A stretch of 43,844 bases of DNA from Promethearchaeota archaeon. GTDB lineage: Archaea > Asgardarchaeota > Thorarchaeia > Thorarchaeales > Thorarchaeaceae. How positions within the stretch are numbered: the first letter of the stretch is position 1; the number at the start of each line of letters is the position of its first letter. This document shows positions 35,203 to 43,844 of this stretch, piece after piece. Made by a program: the position numbers and the translations under genes. The DNA is taken from positions 1-43,844 of the forward strand of contig WJMJ01000039.1 in NCBI GenBank assembly GCA_014728035.1, written 5' to 3'. The notes below the pieces were generated by a model. It was given only the letters and a program-made list of their open reading frames with translations, did no database searches and was not told the DNA's origin.

Positions 35203-38200
35203 CTACGAATCTTCAGCTTTTAGTTTCTCTGCTCTTTCAAAAGCCTTTTTTGCTTCTTCCAGTCTTCCAGTTTTCTCATATAAAAGTCCTAATTCATACC
35301 ATGACTGGTCCCAATCAGAATCAATTTCAAGAGACTTTTTGAATTGTTTTTCTGAATCTTCATACAATTCCATCGAGCTCAAAATCGAGGCCAATGTAAA
35401 CAAAGCAGATGTTGATTCTGGATACATATCTACCGTCTTTTCTGCGACTTCTCGTGCTTCTTGGAATTTCATTTTGTCTCTGAGAATCAGAGCAAGACTA
35501 GCAAGTGCGGATTTTTCTTTGGGGTTAACTTTCAATGCTTGCTTGATATAGTGTTCAGCTTCATCTAATGCACCTTGTTGATGAAATAGAATTCCAAGAT
35601 TAAGATGGCATGTAACATTATCAGGGTCTATCAATGTAAGTTTGACATAGATTTGAATCGCTTTGTCTAGTTCACCCATTAGTGAGTAGATATATCCAAG
35701 ATAATACAATGCGTCTGTATAGTACTCGTCTATTTCGACTGCAGCTTTGAAAGCTTGTGTTGCTTCTTCTAAGTTTTGTTGATTTAATAGATGAATTCCT
35801 AAATCATACCATCCTCGTGGATATCTTGGATAAAGTTCGATAACTTTTCGCATAGCCTTTTCCGCTTTATCTATTTGATTCAATTCCAAAAGGAAAGAAC
35901 CAAGATTCAGCCAAGCTAAAAGATGTTTGGGAGAAATTTCTATGACTTCCTCAAGTAATTCAACTGATTCTTGTGTTCTATCATTATCATGGAGATGTAG
36001 AGCAAGGAGAATAAGTGCTTCAACGTGATGGGAGTTCTCTCCTATTATTTCCCGGAGAATAGATTCAAGTGTTCCTAGATAGGTAAGCCTGTCATATTGT
36101 TCAAGCACCACTCGTTCAATCTCCGGGTTTCCTGGTTCAAGTTCTCTTGCTCTAAGAAGTGCTTCCAAAGCTTCTTTGTCATTACCGATTTCAAGTAAAA
36201 TTGTACCAAGACTGAATAGCATACTTGAATCATCTGGTTTCAGTTCTATTGCTCTTCGAGCGATATTTTCAGCTTCATCTAGATCTCCTTCTTTGGCTGT
36301 TAATACCGATAGAAGATTAAGTAGATCAGCATTATCAGAATCCATCTTGAGTAATTTTTCCAAGACCGCTTTGCCCTTTGCTATTTCATCCTGCATAGAG
36401 GCCTCTAGTGCAACGAAATATCCCTTTTCAATGTATTTTGGATCAATTTCTAGAATTCTTTCAAAAGCTTCGTGAGCCTCATCATGAAGATCAAGCTCCA
36501 ATAGTACTTCACCATAATTCAACAATGTCAAAGTTGAGTCCGATTTGTACTCCAACGATTTTTCAAATGCGTCCTTTGCCTCCACCAATTTGTTTTGTCG
36601 CTTAAGAATCACACCTATACTATTCCAACTAGAAGCATCTTCAGGAACGAGTTCTAACAGTTTCTTAAAAGCTGCTTCTGCCTCTTCTAAATCGCTTAGA
36701 TAGAGCAAGGTCGTACCATATTGAAACCAGCCTAAAGCGTCATCTGGTTTGATTTCAATTACTAATCGAAATGATTTCGCAGCTTCCTCGTATCGTTTTA
36801 GATATACATAAGACATTCCTAGATGGTACCATGTATCATACTGATTTGCATCTAGATTAGTTGATTTTCTGTATGCATCAATAGCAGCGGGATAATCCTT
36901 GTATTTTTCAAATATCTCTCCTAGGAGGTTCCAGTGAGAAGGGTATTGATCATCAATCGAAATTGCTTTCTCAATGGACTCTAGAGCATCATCCAAGTTA
37001 TTTTCATGAATAAATACAACCGCGAGTCGAGCTAAGCTAATGTCGTCTTTATCGTCCAAACTCAATGCCTTTTTGAATGCAGATATTGATTCGTCATACT
37101 TTTCCATCTCAAGATAGAGTGTTCCGAGTTCTCTCCAAGATTCAGGATCATTCGATTCAAGATCAATTGCTCTAAGAATATCCTTTTCCGCCTCTGGATA
37201 TCTTGAAGCTAATCTAAGATTCATTGCTTTTAGTTTCCAAAGCTCGTATTTTTCAGGTCGAATTCCTAATAATCGTTCGAGAGCAATATCTGTATTTTCT
37301 GACTTCATATGAACTCCATAGTAAATAGAATAGACAAAGAAACAAGTGGTAAGCCATTTTTGCGTTTCAGCATCTTCTGGATACGAACATATAATTTCGA
37401 AAAATAGGTCTGCTATATTCTCAGAATCTATCACAAATACATGAGTAGCAATTCTAAGAAGGAAAGACTCATAGGTTGACCGGCCTAAATCTGTTGGGAG
37501 CTCATTGAGAAATCTGTGATACTTTTCAAGAAGATGTTCGGTGATTTCTATCTCATTGATTTTGAAGTATGATCTAATATCATTATAGCTGCCCTTGTAG
37601 ATGAATTCAGCAATTGATGAGTGCGGGAGACCGATAAATTGGTGATATGATTCATCTATCTGCTTTCTCCAGATTTGTTGATCATCTACTAGAATATCGA
37701 TTATTTGTAACACTTCTTTACCAAGAAGCTCTCTTAGAAATTCTTGATTAACTGGCATCTCGATTCGTGAATACGCACCAATTGCACCCAATGCAATTGC
37801 TCCAAGATGTTTGTTTTTTACACCTTTGATTCTTCTGTCAAGAATGTACTTCGGAAGTTGTTCAAAGGGGTCAAATTCATCACATCCTTTTCCGTACGAT
37901 TCCTCAGCTAGTCTGCGAACAACTTCACAAAAGGTAACCATATTCCTTGAAACGTTCAAAAGATATTCTGCTGTGAAGTCTTCATTGATTCGATGTTCTG
38001 TTCCTATTCGTTCTAAGAATGTTTGAGCCGTCGACTCCTCTGTTTCTATTGAGATTGTATTCTTCTCCTTAAACAAATCTAGAATGGGCTGAAGAGTATC
38101 ATTTTCAACACCCGAAGAGGTTCGCGAAATACAGATAATTCGAATATCTGACCTCATCAGTCCCTTATATTGACGAATATGTTCTATCAGGTCACGTGTA

Positions 38201-39237
38201 TAAGCTGGGAGTATATGAGTATCTTCTAAAATAATTAAGGTGGGTTCTTTCTGGTCACTCAGAAACTCAACAAGATTTGTACTTGTATTATGGCGATCAA
38301 TGGTTAACACATCAGTGACATAGGCGTGCCACCCTTTTTGAATTAGTTGATAGCATATGGAAAGGGAGAGCCATGTCTTGCCCTCTCCAGCTGAACCCAA
38401 TATTAATACATCATCATAGGTTGGTTCACTAACTGTCTGGTCAGTGGATTCCTCTGAGGGTATATTCAGAAAATCTATCACATCGGATATCTGTGGTGGG
38501 GCTACTACATATCCTGCATCGAAATCTACCATTCTTGGTCTACCATCTTTAAGACCTCTGAATGGATCAGGCTTATCTTCTGGTTCTTCAAGGACTATGG
38601 TTCTGAAAGTCTTGAAACCAACCAGCTTCGCAGCATTTAGTAATCTCCTCCGTTCAAGGTCATCACGCAGTATGTCCCTGCGGAGTTCCTGAAGTGTAGC
38701 GAGAATCTCAGAGCTAATTTCTAGTGTCTGAAGTCCTAATATTTGTGGTTCAGAAGTTATTCTTTCACTCAATGCAATTGAAAACGCATATCCGATGTTT
38801 TCAGCTAACTCTTCATCAAAATCATCGGTAGTTTTTTCGATTAACCAAGAAGCAATACCCTTCTGAAATGACTTATTCTTATCAATTGATACAACTACCG
38901 AATCATCCCATGTCAGAATTGGGTCAATCAATTTCCTCTGCTGTTTGGATAATACAATTGATTGGTTGGAAAGGATACGTTCGACCTCTTCAATTATCTT
39001 TCTTCTAGTTGACCGCTCTTTTTGAAAATCAAGAAGTGCAGATATTATTCCAGATGTGTCAGCGATAAACCCTGCACCTTCTGCTACCTTAGATACTATC
39101 TCCTGATGAGCGATGACATCCGCGATGATACATCCAAATCGATCCCCTATATATTGAGTTCCTTGTTTTCCAATCTCAAGGGCTCTATCTATTGTGACCT
39201 GGATACCTGAAATCCAACTACGAAATTTCTCTAGCAT
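35203..39237 (-). CDS. STAND-like P-loop NTPase with a large C-terminal TPR array
   Basis: Walker A ILGSAGEGKT, Walker B LIILED, sensor IICISR, helical/WH region, then roughly 19-20 TPRs (W..LG.......Y.EA...F.KA....P). Confidence 0.85.
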   Translation of the reverse strand: MLEKFRSWISGIQVTIDRALEIGKQGTQYIGDRFGCIIADVIAHQEIVSKVAEGAGFIADTSGIISALLDFQKERSTRRKIIEEVERILSNQSIVLSKQQRKLIDPILTWDDSVVVSIDKNKSFQKGIASWLIEKTTDDFDEELAENIGYAFSIALSERITSEPQILGLQTLEISSEILATLQELRRDILRDDLERRRLLNAAKLVGFKTFRTIVLEEPEDKPDPFRGLKDGRPRMVDFDAGYVVAPPQISDVIDFLNIPSEESTDQTVSEPTYDDVLILGSAGEGKTWLSLSICYQLIQKGWHAYVTDVLTIDRHNTSTNLVEFLSDQKEPTLIILEDTHILPAYTRDLIEHIRQYKGLMRSDIRIICISRTSSGVENDTLQPILDLFKEKNTISIETEESTAQTFLERIGTEHRINEDFTAEYLLNVSRNMVTFCEVVRRLAEESYGKGCDEFDPFEQLPKYILDRRIKGVKNKHLGAIALGAIGAYSRIEMPVNQEFLRELLGKEVLQIIDILVDDQQIWRKQIDESYHQFIGLPHSSIAEFIYKGSYNDIRSYFKINEIEITEHLLEKYHRFLNELPTDLGRSTYESFLLRIATHVFVIDSENIADLFFEIICSYPEDAETQKWLTTCFFVYSIYYGVHMKSENTDIALERLLGIRPEKYELWKLKAMNLRLASRYPEAEKDILRAIDLESNDPESWRELGTLYLEMEKYDESISAFKKALSLDDKDDISLARLAVVFIHENNLDDALESIEKAISIDDQYPSHWNLLGEIFEKYKDYPAAIDAYRKSTNLDANQYDTWYHLGMSYVYLKRYEEAAKSFRLVIEIKPDDALGWFQYGTTLLYLSDLEEAEAAFKKLLELVPEDASSWNSIGVILKRQNKLVEAKDAFEKSLEYKSDSTLTLLNYGEVLLELDLHDEAHEAFERILEIDPKYIEKGYFVALEASMQDEIAKGKAVLEKLLKMDSDNADLLNLLSVLTAKEGDLDEAENIARRAIELKPDDSSMLFSLGTILLEIGNDKEALEALLRARELEPGNPEIERVVLEQYDRLTYLGTLESILREIIGENSHHVEALILLALHLHDNDRTQESVELLEEVIEISPKHLLAWLNLGSFLLELNQIDKAEKAMRKVIELYPRYPRGWYDLGIHLLNQQNLEEATQAFKAAVEIDEYYTDALYYLGYIYSLMGELDKAIQIYVKLTLIDPDNVTCHLNLGILFHQQGALDEAEHYIKQALKVNPKEKSALASLALILRDKMKFQEAREVAEKTVDMYPESTSALFTLASILSSMELYEDSEKQFKKSLEIDSDWDQSWYELGLLYEKTGRLEEAKKAFERAEKLKAEDS

Positions 39238-40020: not shown

Positions 40021-40629
40021 TTACTGTTTTATTCTCCCCTCCTCAATTTTCTCCAAGGTTATCAAAGCACCTACATAATCCTGCAGAGTCTGCTCTCTCT
40101 CTTTGTATGACAGGTTTGGGTCGAGTATTCTTCTTCTAAGCATACTAAGATACTTGTTTTCTAGCTTCTCGATATAGAGCGAATTCCCCATCTTTGTCAA
40201 TTTGATCATTGGTTGATTCTGAATATATTCGATCAGTTGTAACCATTTCTCAGCTGACGATGGATTCAAACCAATCTTTTGAAGTTCTGATTTTGCAAAT
40301 GGTTCCGGTTGCATCTCAATGAATTCAAATATTGACTCCACACGTTCTGTTAGTGTCCTTCGTCCCTTTCCTCTCTTCTTTGATTTTGTTTTCTCTTCTA
40401 CCTTTTTGGAGAGTTGGAACTTTCTGAATCCAATAATCCAATCTTTAGTGTCAAAATCAGGAAAAACACTCCCCATAACTATCTCATTAGAAAGAGGAAA
40501 GTAGATCTTCTTTTTCAATCTCACAATCTTTCTTTCGTCATCTAATAGACTCAATTCTGAGAGTCTCTCTCTAACTTTCTGTTCCAAGTAACGAGGCACT
40601 GATAGAAATGGGGTCTGTTCCACTGACAT
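40021..40629 (-). CDS. Trm5 N-terminal-domain-like / winged-helix fusion protein
   Basis: FLSVPRYLEQKVRERLSELSLLDDERKIVRLKKKIYFPL resembles archaeal Trm5 domain D1. A Lys-rich linker is followed by a wHTH-like module (KSELQKIGLNPSSAEKWLQLI). Confidence 0.6.
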   Translation of the reverse strand: MSVEQTPFLSVPRYLEQKVRERLSELSLLDDERKIVRLKKKIYFPLSNEIVMGSVFPDFDTKDWIIGFRKFQLSKKVEEKTKSKKRGKGRRTLTERVESIFEFIEMQPEPFAKSELQKIGLNPSSAEKWLQLIEYIQNQPMIKLTKMGNSLYIEKLENKYLSMLRRRILDPNLSYKEREQTLQDYVGALITLEKIEEGRIKQ

Positions 40630-40659: not shown

Positions 40660-40675
40660 AATACATTAATGTATT
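40660..40675. promoter_or_regulatory. 16-bp perfect palindrome in the divergent promoter
   Basis: AATACATTAATGTATT is self-complementary and lies 30 bp upstream of the wHTH gene start, next to TATA-like elements. Confidence 0.55.
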
Positions 40676-40753
40676 TTTTAGTATATTAACATTTCTTTTA
40701 TATGCACTGATTTGACAGTATGATTAGAAATTTCCTCCAAATGATGATGAATA

Positions 40754-42784
40754 ATGAAGATTGAAAAAGTTGAGAATATGCGGTACTACGTACAGGAGAC
40801 TGTGACACGATTCATCGACAAACATTTCCCTGAAAGGTCTGAAGAGATGAATGCTGATTTTGAAGAGAAGTTCAGTGAATTGCAGCAGAGTTATGAATCA
40901 GAAGTAGAAGGTCTCCAAAAACTGATGAAATCTATTAATCCCGCAGTATCATCAGTACTTGGAATGTGCGAGGAATATGATATACTCATGGCAATGATTG
41001 TTTCTCTTTTCAAAGCGACTTGGGAAGGGGCTCAACGAAGAAAGAAGAAGCCACCTCCAAGACCAAAACTAGTTCTCCCAGGGAGTGATCAATCAATAGA
41101 TCTATCCTTTCATTGTTCTGCCTGCAGACAAGAGATAGAGGTCTCTTATGAAGACAAAATGAGGATACTGAATTCTGATGGAGATGTTCCACTTCCTGTT
41201 CACTGTGGCGAACAAGCAAAACTCAAGATTACAAAAGCTGATGAAGAATTAGCTGAGGTGGAGGAAACCAAGCCTGATGATCAGACCATTCCCGTGGAGA
41301 TGGTTATCGGATATATCCCGTCAGATGAAGTTGAATATCGAACTGTGTTGAGTGTTGGAATAGACATTGGTTCATCGACTTCTCATCTCATATTTTCTCG
41401 ATTGACATTGAAACGTGAAACTGGCTTCTTAAATATGACAAACAGATTCAATCTAATCGGAAGAGAAATCATCTATAAGAGCGAAATTATCTTCACACCC
41501 CTGATAGACAAGTATACCATCGATGTTGATGCGGTTGTCAAGTTCTGTGAAGAAGAATATCAAAAAGCAGGAATCAGACCAGAGATGGTTGAGACCGGTG
41601 CTGTTTTGGTAACGGGTGAAACTGCCAAAAAACAGAACGCAGCTGAGATTGTGAAACGTCTCTCATCAGAGTCAGGGAAATTCGTGAGTGCCGCTGCAGG
41701 TCCTAATCTGGAATCTATGTTGAGTGCGATGGGGAGTGGAGTGGTAAATCAATCCCTCTTACTTGGACAGACTATCCTTCATATCGATATCGGGGGTGGT
41801 ACGAGCAATATGTCGATTGTTTCGTCGGGAAAGGTTCTCACGACTGCATGTATCAATGTGGGTGGAAGACTTCTTGGAATTGACAAAGATTACAAAATAT
41901 GGAGAATCGATGGTCCAACTCAATTTGTTATGCAAAAGTTGGGAATGCAATATGCCATTGGCGATACAATCTCTGAAGAAGATGCGATGAGTATATCCAC
42001 TGCATATGCAGAGGCACTGCTAGAAGTAATGCAGGGAAAAGCAACAAATGTGATTGCTAAAGAACTGTTGATGACTAGTGACCTTGATTTCTCAGTTCCA
42101 ATTGATGCATATTCTTTCTCGGGAGGTGTAGGGGAGCTGATTTATGGAGGAGATGAAACGTTTGATGATATTGGGCTCATGCTTGCTAATGATATCAAAC
42201 GACTTCTACACGAACAGGAACTAAGAGTCATCGAACCTCCAGCGAAGATACGAGCCACTGTCATTGGTGCAGGCGCTTTCTCATTATCAGTTTCAGGTTC
42301 GACAACTTTTGTTGATAATAGAATAGAATTCCCCTTGAAAGACATTCCAGTTCTTCCAATTAATTTAGATGAAAATTTCTCACCAGAACAAGTTGTTGAA
42401 TCAATTCAACGAGCTTACTCTACATTCGATAAGATTGAAGGGAGTGACGTTGTTGGATTGTATTTCGAACAGAGAATGCGTTCAACGGAATTTTCTGCTG
42501 ATGAGATACTGGTAGAGTTCGCCAAGGCAATCGAGAGAGCCCTTCCGGTTTCTGTCAGAGATGAGAAACTGATCATCTTGTTATTATCCTATGATGTTGG
42601 AAAACTACTCGGAATCGCAATCAGAGATCACACATCGATTAAGGGTAATTTCATGTGTCTTGATGAATTGAAATTGGAGGCTGGAGACTGGATAGATATC
42701 GGGACACCAATTGGTGATGCTGAATCTACATTTCCGGTAACTGTCAAGAGTCTTGTCTTTAATGAGAACAAAGAATACGAGTAG
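40754..42784 (+). CDS. eutA: EutA-like reactivase (ASKHA ATPase) with a ~195-aa N-terminal extension
   Basis: LSVGIDIGSSTSHLIFSRL, VTGETAKKQNA, FVSAAAGPNLES, IDIGGGTSN, INVGGRL, FSGGVGE, IRATVIGAG, GDWIDIG.P, PVTVKSLVF. Confidence 0.85.
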   Translation: MKIEKVENMRYYVQETVTRFIDKHFPERSEEMNADFEEKFSELQQSYESEVEGLQKLMKSINPAVSSVLGMCEEYDILMAMIVSLFKATWEGAQRRKKKPPPRPKLVLPGSDQSIDLSFHCSACRQEIEVSYEDKMRILNSDGDVPLPVHCGEQAKLKITKADEELAEVEETKPDDQTIPVEMVIGYIPSDEVEYRTVLSVGIDIGSSTSHLIFSRLTLKRETGFLNMTNRFNLIGREIIYKSEIIFTPLIDKYTIDVDAVVKFCEEEYQKAGIRPEMVETGAVLVTGETAKKQNAAEIVKRLSSESGKFVSAAAGPNLESMLSAMGSGVVNQSLLLGQTILHIDIGGGTSNMSIVSSGKVLTTACINVGGRLLGIDKDYKIWRIDGPTQFVMQKLGMQYAIGDTISEEDAMSISTAYAEALLEVMQGKATNVIAKELLMTSDLDFSVPIDAYSFSGGVGELIYGGDETFDDIGLMLANDIKRLLHEQELRVIEPPAKIRATVIGAGAFSLSVSGSTTFVDNRIEFPLKDIPVLPINLDENFSPEQVVESIQRAYSTFDKIEGSDVVGLYFEQRMRSTEFSADEILVEFAKAIERALPVSVRDEKLIILLLSYDVGKLLGIAIRDHTSIKGNFMCLDELKLEAGDWIDIGTPIGDAESTFPVTVKSLVFNENKEYE

Positions 42785-42792
42785 GTGAGGTG

Positions 42793-43844
42793 ATGAGTAG
42801 CATACCAATCAAATGGCAAATAGTTGATATCCTCCAGTCTAACTTTGAAATCCTATTTGGCAAGGATGCCGAAACGGTACTAAATGAGTTCATCCGTGAG
42901 TTCGACAAGCTTGTTTTAGACCAAGCAGAAAAGAGTTCAGATGGTTCTATCACAATTATAAACTTCATCACAGCCTTCAAACCTGCACTTAATCTTGTTA
43001 TTCCTCTTGGTCAAGACTTTGATAGGATTGTACGTCAGGTTAGTCCGGTTCTCAATGCTGCACTATCAAAGGACAGTCACAAGGAAATTCAAGCAGAATT
43101 AAGTTCACAGGTTCAAACGAGATCGCATGATTCTCCCACTGGCCAAATCATTCCTCGATATGATGCCCCAGAGAATATGACTCTGATGAGCGTAGGTATC
43201 GACATTGGTTCATCAACGTCTCATCTTGTGTTTTCAAAACTTGTTCTCAAACGAGAACGGAACTTTCAGAATCCATCCTATCGATTCATGCTGGTTGATA
43301 GAGAGATTGTATACGAGAGTGACATCATCTTTACACCGCTTCTTGATCAGTACACGATTGATATAGAGGCAGTTGTACAATTCTGCGAGGAAGAATATCG
43401 AAAAGCAGGTCTAACCCGAGAAGACATAGATACTGGTGCAGTTGTAGTGACGGGTGAAACTGCTAAGAAACAGAATGCTGCAGAGATAGTTGAAAGAGTT
43501 GCATCAGAATCTGGAAAATTCGTTAGTGCCTCTGCGGGTCCCAACTACGAATCTGTTCTTGGTGCTATGGGAAGTGGTATCATCGATTTATCTGCCGAAA
43601 CTGGTAAGATAATCATGAATATCGATATCGGAGGAGGTACGAGTAACATTGCAGTCTGCTCCAAGGGAAGAGTCCTCAGTACATCATGTATCAATGTCGG
43701 TGGGAGACTTCTTGGAATAGACTCAGAATTCAAGATATGGCGTATTGACCAACCTACTAGATTCATTATGCAACATCTTGGAATGAGCTATGAACTTGAC
43801 GATATTATTTCTGAATCAGATGTCAAGCTCATCGCAGAGACCTA
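42793..43844 (+). CDS. eutA: second EutA-like ATPase with a ~128-aa N-terminal extension (3' partial, not in ORF track)
   Basis: ATG 42793 after GGTGAGGTG. The frame is open to the window end: MSSIPIKW...MSVGIDIGSSTSHLVFSKL...VTGETAKKQNAAE...IDIGGGTSN...INVGGRLLG. Confidence 0.88.
   Translation, partial: MSSIPIKWQIVDILQSNFEILFGKDAETVLNEFIREFDKLVLDQAEKSSDGSITIINFITAFKPALNLVIPLGQDFDRIVRQVSPVLNAALSKDSHKEIQAELSSQVQTRSHDSPTGQIIPRYDAPENMTLMSVGIDIGSSTSHLVFSKLVLKRERNFQNPSYRFMLVDREIVYESDIIFTPLLDQYTIDIEAVVQFCEEEYRKAGLTREDIDTGAVVVTGETAKKQNAAEIVERVASESGKFVSASAGPNYESVLGAMGSGIIDLSAETGKIIMNIDIGGGTSNIAVCSKGRVLSTSCINVGGRLLGIDSEFKIWRIDQPTRFIMQHLGMSYELDDIISESDVKLIAET

Follow-up and report, generated by a model that had tools for sequence, protein, structure and literature searches.

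Tandem EutA-family ATPases with a new N-terminal helical domain form an Asgard-specific variant in a Thorarchaeota genome without a detectable ethanolamine ammonia-lyase

The only role biochemically known for the EutA family is reactivation of the cobalamin-dependent ethanolamine ammonia-lyase EutBC (PMC9426561). Here we analyse a locus of a Promethearchaeota archaeon of the order Thorarchaeales (assembly GCA_014728035.1), in which two EutA-like genes, hereafter A and B, lie at the 3' end of contig WJMJ01000039.1; this whole contig (C2 of genome G000; 43,844 nucleotides) is the window throughout. Like EutA of E. coli and Salmonella (PF06277), A and B have an ASKHA (acetate and sugar kinase/Hsc70/actin) core, a C-terminal domain and the nucleotide-binding motifs of the family. 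Unlike E. coli EutA, which starts at the core, they carry N-terminal extensions of 196 and 130 residues, respectively, and no eutBC was found in their genome. The first-pass annotation of this DNA had stated that bacterial EutA begins almost directly at SVGIDIG, and this motif is indeed found at residue 4 of the E. coli protein. In its domain architecture the A/B pair is a new variant within a known family and does not amount to a new kind of system. A literature search returned nothing on “EutA-like” or PF06277, and EutA and Asgard archaea were mentioned together only in a list of actin-superfamily members.

Both genes encode what are, by sequence, true full-length EutA-family proteins. Pfam family PF06277 matched A over residues 197–670 (E = 3e-131, 439 bits against a cut-off of 27) and the part of B inside the window over residues 131–350 (E = 3e-73, 248 bits, same cut-off). 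The final 141 nucleotides of C2 are identical to the first ones of contig C89 when the latter is reverse-complemented. The assembly break falls inside gene B, and C2 and C89 can be handled as a single locus. Completed via C89 (L003:1501-2403, minus strand), B reaches about 605 residues, and its C-terminal piece scored 207 bits and extended to position 475 of the 475 in the Pfam profile. The A core is 34% identical to E. coli EutA (b2451) over the entire 467-aa length and 66% identical to the core of B. The phosphate-1 (DxGxxT), phosphate-2 (DxGGGT) and adenosine (GG) motifs are intact and align with those of E. coli EutA, and the nucleotide-binding residues D204/G206/S207/T209/S210, D345/G347–349 and G457/G458/E461 are invariant in the alignment of A, B and the shorter Asgard homologues described below.

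An AlphaFold2 (AF2) model of the whole A protein (mean pLDDT = 80.9) placed the ASKHA core and the C-terminal α/β domain at residues 193–667. A Foldseek search with the core retrieved generic ASKHA matches only, RACo among them, with Ppx/GppA, HgdC, PilM, MreB and kinases at similar E-values, and the Pfam similarities to MreB and FtsA (22–28 bits) fell below the Pfam cut-offs. A terminates six residues past its core, at residue 676, and B likewise ends right after its core, so that neither protein bears a C-terminal tail of the profilin-like kind considered below. The orthologues of A in 21 fetched loci are 676–735 residues long.

The first-pass annotation had noted that eutBC was not in view and had proposed a repurposed, possibly heteromeric ASKHA ATPase system with a new targeting domain. 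We extended the search to the whole genome, which is 97.9% complete, and found no match to EutB or EutC (PF06751, PF05985), with E. coli serving as the positive control; nor was eutB found in any of 400 genomes of the phylum (0/400). The possibility that eutBC lies immediately downstream of B was ruled out by the contig join, since the sequence past gene B on C89 holds a convergent, split gene for a thiamine pyrophosphate-dependent decarboxylase, a major facilitator superfamily transporter and toxin-antitoxin genes. Absence of eutBC is not unusual in itself, because orphan EutA genes are common in Asgard archaea (PF06277 is present in 183 of the 400 genomes) and occur in bacteria that lack EutB (four members of the control set). 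In addition, our proteins scored below the cut-off of every NCBIfam EutA equivalog (NF007991–NF007994), the best reaching 381 bits against 598 and the others 237–288 against 769–952. With no eutBC in the genome, no eutB in the phylum and scores under the equivalog cut-offs, the client must differ from that of EutA. Judged by these comparisons, A and B cannot be reactivases of the ethanolamine lyase, which shows a repurposing away from that enzyme, and the earlier proposal is upheld in this respect. The automatic label “ethanolamine utilisation protein EutA” is thus misleading for a family present in nearly half of the searched Asgard genomes, because none of these genomes has the lyase.

What sets A and B apart from E. 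coli EutA is the N-terminal region. According to the AF2 model of this region of A (mean pLDDT = 86.6), a four-helix bundle is followed by a basic linker, a small β/α module, an acidic linker and the ASKHA core; the helices of the bundle, which we call the head, span residues 2–24, 26/29–42, 50–69 and 73–98, with pLDDT values of about 86–98. The extensions of A and B had been aligned by eye in the first-pass annotation and described as a shared, novel helical domain. Pairwise BLAST recovered the same pairing at E = 0.11 only, and hhalign comparison of eight Thorarchaeota A heads with five B heads gave a probability of 99.5% and E = 3.4e-23 over 98 columns, so that the register read by eye was correct. 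Moreover, the A head (residues 5–100) matched the B genes of other genomes with E-values of 1e-5 to 4e-8; these open reading frames (ORFs) encode 610–640 residues and lie 1.5–2 kb downstream on the same contigs as the long ORFs. A joint alignment revealed the motif FKPALSSVL-PG--FD-L in both sets. By profile comparison, the A and B heads are homologous. Their novelty also held up: the head has no significant Pfam family, Foldseek found no PDB structure at E ≤ 1e-3, and VIA returned generic helical bundles only (Z ≤ 8.2), under the level that is meaningful for helical folds.

The proposed likeness of the two extensions applied to the head, but not to the β/α module, which is present in A only. 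In the AF2 model this module comprises strands at residues 115–120 and 156–161 and a helix at 132–140, and it displays the pattern C121-x2-C124 ... H150-C151. The CxxC pair and the histidine, about 25 residues past it, are invariant across A orthologues, and the fourth position is occupied by either cysteine or histidine, making CxxC...H[C/H] a probable zinc site. The module also occurs one to three times per protein in another family (P0051, P0053, P0055, P0058, P0061, P0068 and P0070; G046:C575, L107), where, as the pattern [YF]CxxC..F.IP.E.K..L.S....LP.HHGKEM.I.I, it follows a conserved N-terminal domain. This second family matches no Pfam family and is essentially limited to one Asgard family, f10; it was not found in the present genome and yielded no functional lead. 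A further protein, P0054 (1549 aa), contains 17 zinc-finger-like stretches that match the module.

We next considered how widely this architecture is distributed. When the N-terminal 196 residues of A were used as query, about 80 of the 400 phylum genomes yielded matching long ORFs. A head profile, of the kind proposed in the first-pass annotation, retrieved 65 clusters only from 1.84 billion representative proteins, and all nine full-length matches checked by Pfam were fused to EutA cores. The named relatives are metagenome-assembled genomes (MAGs) of Candidatus Thorarchaeota, Hermodarchaeota and Promethearchaeota, and the long-form module is also encoded by two genomes, probably of the Loki family, that each consist of one contig (about 6.0 and 4.3 Mb). 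As far as these searches reach, the long form occurs in Asgard archaea only.

In a maximum-likelihood tree of 49 cores, the long forms constituted one clade (support 100/100) nested among Asgard short forms, and the B proteins a clade (97/97) nested within Thorarchaeota A sequences. The sole root of this tree is a very long E. coli branch, and the direction of change is therefore read from the nesting. It implies a single gain of the head together with the zinc module, and identifies B as a Thorarchaeota-specific tandem duplicate from which the zinc module was lost. On this tree, the tandem pair is a Thorarchaeota-specific duplication, and the ancestral, phylum-wide unit, as judged from the sequence comparisons, is a single long-form gene with a small divergent gene, c1.

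Gene c1 adjoins A divergently in 16 of the 21 loci (20 kb each; families f1, f8, f21 and f22), and no other kept neighbour of the long form was found in the loci examined. Its conserved core of about 113–115 residues was detected in 87 of the 400 genomes (E < 1e-10), including 66 of the 78 that carry A, and both genes are missing from 301 genomes. Because relatedness makes the genomes non-independent, we claim no statistical test for these counts. In our genome c1 also has an N-terminal extension of about 75 residues, of which residues 11–49 match Trm5_N (PF18093; E = 9.8e-6, 25.7 bits, cut-off 22.7). In genome G329 (L028) an extension of this kind can be aligned, and the open frames of a few further Thorarchaeota relatives are longer as well. 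The extension is missing from most orthologues, which start right at a palindrome in the c1/A intergenic region.

This palindrome is a perfect 16-bp repeat in our locus. Its 14-bp core pattern matched once in the window, where 0.03 matches were expected, and the full 16-mer, AATACATTAATGTATT, is unique in the 4.3-Mb genome. In ten other Thorarchaeota and f8 loci, making 11 with the present one, AATACAWTAWTGTATT stands directly beside the c1 start codon, and in Loki-type loci a related site, resembling TATATTATTGTATCT, occurs twice. Two conserved TATA-like elements, to which we assign a promoter role from the archaeal TATA consensus, face c1 and A, respectively, and a position between TATA box and gene start is the classical one for an archaeal repressor. 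The palindrome may thus be the operator bound by c1. The behaviour of c1-like paralogues is that of members of a family of local regulators, since they lie beside unrelated genes: in family f11 (L094–L099, L104), divergently beside a 656–711-aa ATC_hydrolase-like/HEAT protein, and in Thorarchaeota, immediately downstream of PolX and URO-D genes and in the same orientation. A wider regulon was considered and rejected, as the genome holds 14 matches to the loose pattern where about 12 are expected, and so gives no sign of further sites. The coordinates of the locus are given in Table 1.

Table 1. Features of the A/B locus in window coordinates.
Feature	Position	Strand	Basis or remark
c1, divergent small gene, 202 aa here	40021..40629	-	conserved core aa 90-202 (40024-40362)
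16-bp perfect palindrome AATACATTAATGTATT, candidate operator	40660..40675	.	c1/A intergenic region
Two conserved TATA-like elements: TAGTATATTAAC (= TTTATATA-like) towards c1, CTTTTATATG towards A	40679..40704	.	intergenic alignment
Gene A, long-form EutA-family ASKHA ATPase	40754..42784	+	ORF, 676 aa
A, aa 2-98: four-helix bundle head, common to B	40757..41047	+	AF2 model
A, aa 115-161: small β/α module, probable zinc site, absent from B	41096..41236	+	orthologue alignment, AF2
A, aa 197-670: EutA-family ATPase core	41342..42763	+	PF06277 positions 2-475 of 475
Gene B, second long-form paralogue	42790..43844	+	ORF open at 3' end (contig end)
Four-helix-type head of B (aa 1 to about 100), then linker without zinc module	42793..43089	+	alignment, hhalign

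Gene B could start at GTG 42790, five nucleotides past the A stop codon, or at ATG 42793, eight nucleotides past it; the latter agrees with the spacing of 8 bp originally reported for two co-oriented EutA-like paralogues.

Taken together, the data lead us to favour, by a modest degree of belief, the view that A and B represent an Asgard-specific, long-form EutA-type ATPase that remodels its partner at the expense of ATP, is duplicated in Thorarchaeota and locally regulated, and serves a client other than the lyase. According to this proposal, an Asgard EutA-like ATPase of about 480 residues would have acquired a four-helix bundle at its N-terminus, along with a small zinc module, to give gene A, which was duplicated in tandem in Thorarchaeota, B keeping the helical head and losing the zinc module. 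The two proteins, probably acting together, would work as remodelling or “reactivase” chaperones in which ATP binding and hydrolysis open or release a partner protein, and the head, with the zinc module in A, would be the likely partner-binding or assembly part. Most likely, c1 is a local DNA-binding autoregulator that acts on the 16-bp palindrome, located between the TATA box and the start codon of c1, and its binding would set expression from the shared c1/A promoter region. We infer the ATPase activity, the chaperone mode, the A/B complex, the binding of zinc, the binding of c1 to the palindrome and the client. A role comparable to the proposed one is played by the diol dehydratase reactivase DdrA, MutL of glutamate mutase, the 2-hydroxyacyl-CoA dehydratase activator HgdC and RACo, actin-fold ATPases that restore a partner enzyme by means of ATP; these belong to other families with other accessory domains, and their structural likeness to A is generic to ASKHA proteins only (E about 1e-8, TM 0.2–0.5).

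Several observations weigh against this proposal. No conserved enzyme partner was found near long or short forms in the neighbourhoods examined, and a “reactivase” role for another client is an extrapolation, given that the sole known EutA mechanism involves a cobalamin enzyme. A sequence search of the PDB retrieved no EutA structure, just a weak MreB match. On the side of regulation, 12 of the 78 A-carrying genomes lack a detectable c1, most of the genomes being incomplete MAGs, and the palindrome could be the site of some other factor. The c1 core matches no Pfam family (chance-level rows apart, E ≤ 5), and its Atlas look-alikes are MarR, TrmB and HTH_24 clusters at 0.77–0.79 only, which makes them weak winged-helix leads. 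Of the first-pass suggestion that a divergent winged helix-turn-helix gene regulates the pair, the association of c1 with A stands and the promoter palindrome fits local regulation, but the assignment to the winged-helix fold, with no Pfam match and Atlas values below 0.8, is tentative.

An unlikely alternative, though the one that fares best, is that the long forms have Asgard actin as their target or partner, for instance by chaperoning, loading or regulating its monomers, the head and zinc module providing the cytoskeletal contacts. EutA is itself an actin-fold protein, and proteins of 831 aa (P0015 of G153, L117:1294-3789) and 896 aa (G163, L118:1842-4532) from two Loki-type genera combine a head, zinc module and core like those of A with a conserved C-terminal tail of about 130 residues. 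The head profile detects P0015 at E = 3.8e-56, and the 831-aa and 896-aa proteins share 51% identity end to end; both tails end in WSWDL[IV], and the G163 protein has an extra low-complexity linker of about 40 residues ahead of the tail. All Atlas clusters nearest to the tail belong to profilin families, “Thor profilin” among them (0.87, 186–192 shared features). However, the tail has no Pfam or PDB sequence match to profilin, the tailed fusion is rare (these two proteins only), and A and B end after the core. Nor was an actin, gelsolin or profilin gene a kept neighbour in the loci examined, and a fusion is evidence for an association within a few lineages, not for what the whole clade does. 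The profilin-like tail is a real but unconfirmed lead from the long-form clade to actin. In its fullest version, which we regard as rather unlikely, the long forms would be a hitherto unrecognised, Asgard-specific component of the actin system that chaperones, loads or remodels monomers via the head and zinc module, with a fused profilin in some Loki-type lineages, and in Thorarchaeota A and B would form a hetero-oligomer under a dedicated regulator. If the fusions do reflect whole-clade function, the long form would be an unexpected ATP-driven player in the archaeal precursor of the actin cytoskeleton of eukaryotes.

It is quite improbable, in our judgement, that A and B are reactivases of another cobalamin enzyme and exchange damaged cobalamin, for example in the methylmalonyl-CoA-mutase-type enzymes of this genome. 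Such a function would stay closest to the lyase reactivation described for the family, and the genome does encode several B12 radical-SAM (S-adenosylmethionine) enzymes, a 132-aa B12-binding subunit and two MM_CoA_mutase large subunits, none of them linked to the EutA-like genes, as well as a B12-binding sensor-like protein. However, acyl-CoA mutases are normally served by MeaB-type G-proteins, and in about 40 loci no EutA-like gene, long or short, lies beside a cobalamin enzyme. Searches of the genome for glutamate mutase E, lysine aminomutase and diol dehydratase gave no match; those for the latter two were run without a positive control and thus do not demonstrate absence. Finally, the helical head and the zinc module have no counterpart in known reactivases.

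A ParM/ParR-like DNA-positioning system, in which an actin-fold ATPase would be tethered via c1 to a palindromic, centromere-like site, would account for the joint presence of an ASKHA ATPase, a putative DNA-binding protein of small size and a conserved palindrome, and for the weak MreB and FtsA similarities, but is highly improbable, as the core aligns end to end with EutA, C-terminal domain included, and not with polymerising actins, there is one 16-bp site at a promoter and no repeat array, c1 and A are divergent rather than in an operon, c1-like paralogues flank unrelated genes (ATC-hydrolase/HEAT protein, PolX), and the locus is chromosomal and kept across classes.

Under the favoured proposal of a remodelling ATPase with a client other than the lyase, the long form is a clean Asgard-only unit in which an ATPase with a new helical head and a putative zinc module is accompanied by a small dedicated partner gene and a conserved candidate operator. 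If the profilin fusions do not reflect the function of the clade, it would represent the scaffold of a cofactor-repair chaperone recruited to a new client.

The Asgard short forms, of about 480 residues, resemble A in the core, make up the sister or ancestral group of the long forms in the tree and are also without eutBC; unlike A, they have no head, zinc module or c1 partner. They are more widespread and account for most of the 183 genomes with PF06277, and their neighbourhoods differ between families: in f8 the neighbours are a gamma-glutamyltranspeptidase and a peptide ABC transporter, in Thorarchaeota a nitroreductase, a GNAT protein and a PAS kinase. The present genome has one short form as its third EutA-like gene, on contig C5 (G000:C5:48726-50132; L002:1477-2910). 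The encoded protein, of 477 aa, is 43% identical to A in the core and 34% identical to E. coli EutA over the entire length. Its gene overlaps by 4 nucleotides a gene for a 298-aa GNAT protein (L002:2907-3803) with a histidine-N-acetyltransferase-like C-terminus. The same pairing was seen in at least one other Thorarchaeota genome (L092) and is not general.

In the tree, a 642-aa EutA-like protein of genome G051 (L105:1208-3133, minus strand) falls among the long forms, and a c1-like gene lies divergently beside its gene. The 174-aa N-terminal extension of this protein was not detected by the A head query, which points to a diverged or replaced head. In family f11, the ATC_hydrolase-like/HEAT gene beside the c1-like paralogue is followed by a gene for a 930–956-aa protein without a Pfam family, and the two make up a conserved Asgard module.

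Upstream of the A/B locus, a gene at 35203-39237 (minus strand) encodes a 1344-aa protein rich in tetratricopeptide-like repeats, which in other genomes is not a kept neighbour of the EutA-like module. Genes for a HepT-like RNase (PF01934; 39303-39635, plus strand) and a minimal nucleotidyltransferase (PF01909; 39712-39990, plus strand) adjoin each other and look like a HepT/MNT toxin-antitoxin pair. On contig C89, a second nucleotidyltransferase-like pair and a PIN-like gene are apparent from inspection of the ORFs and sequence.

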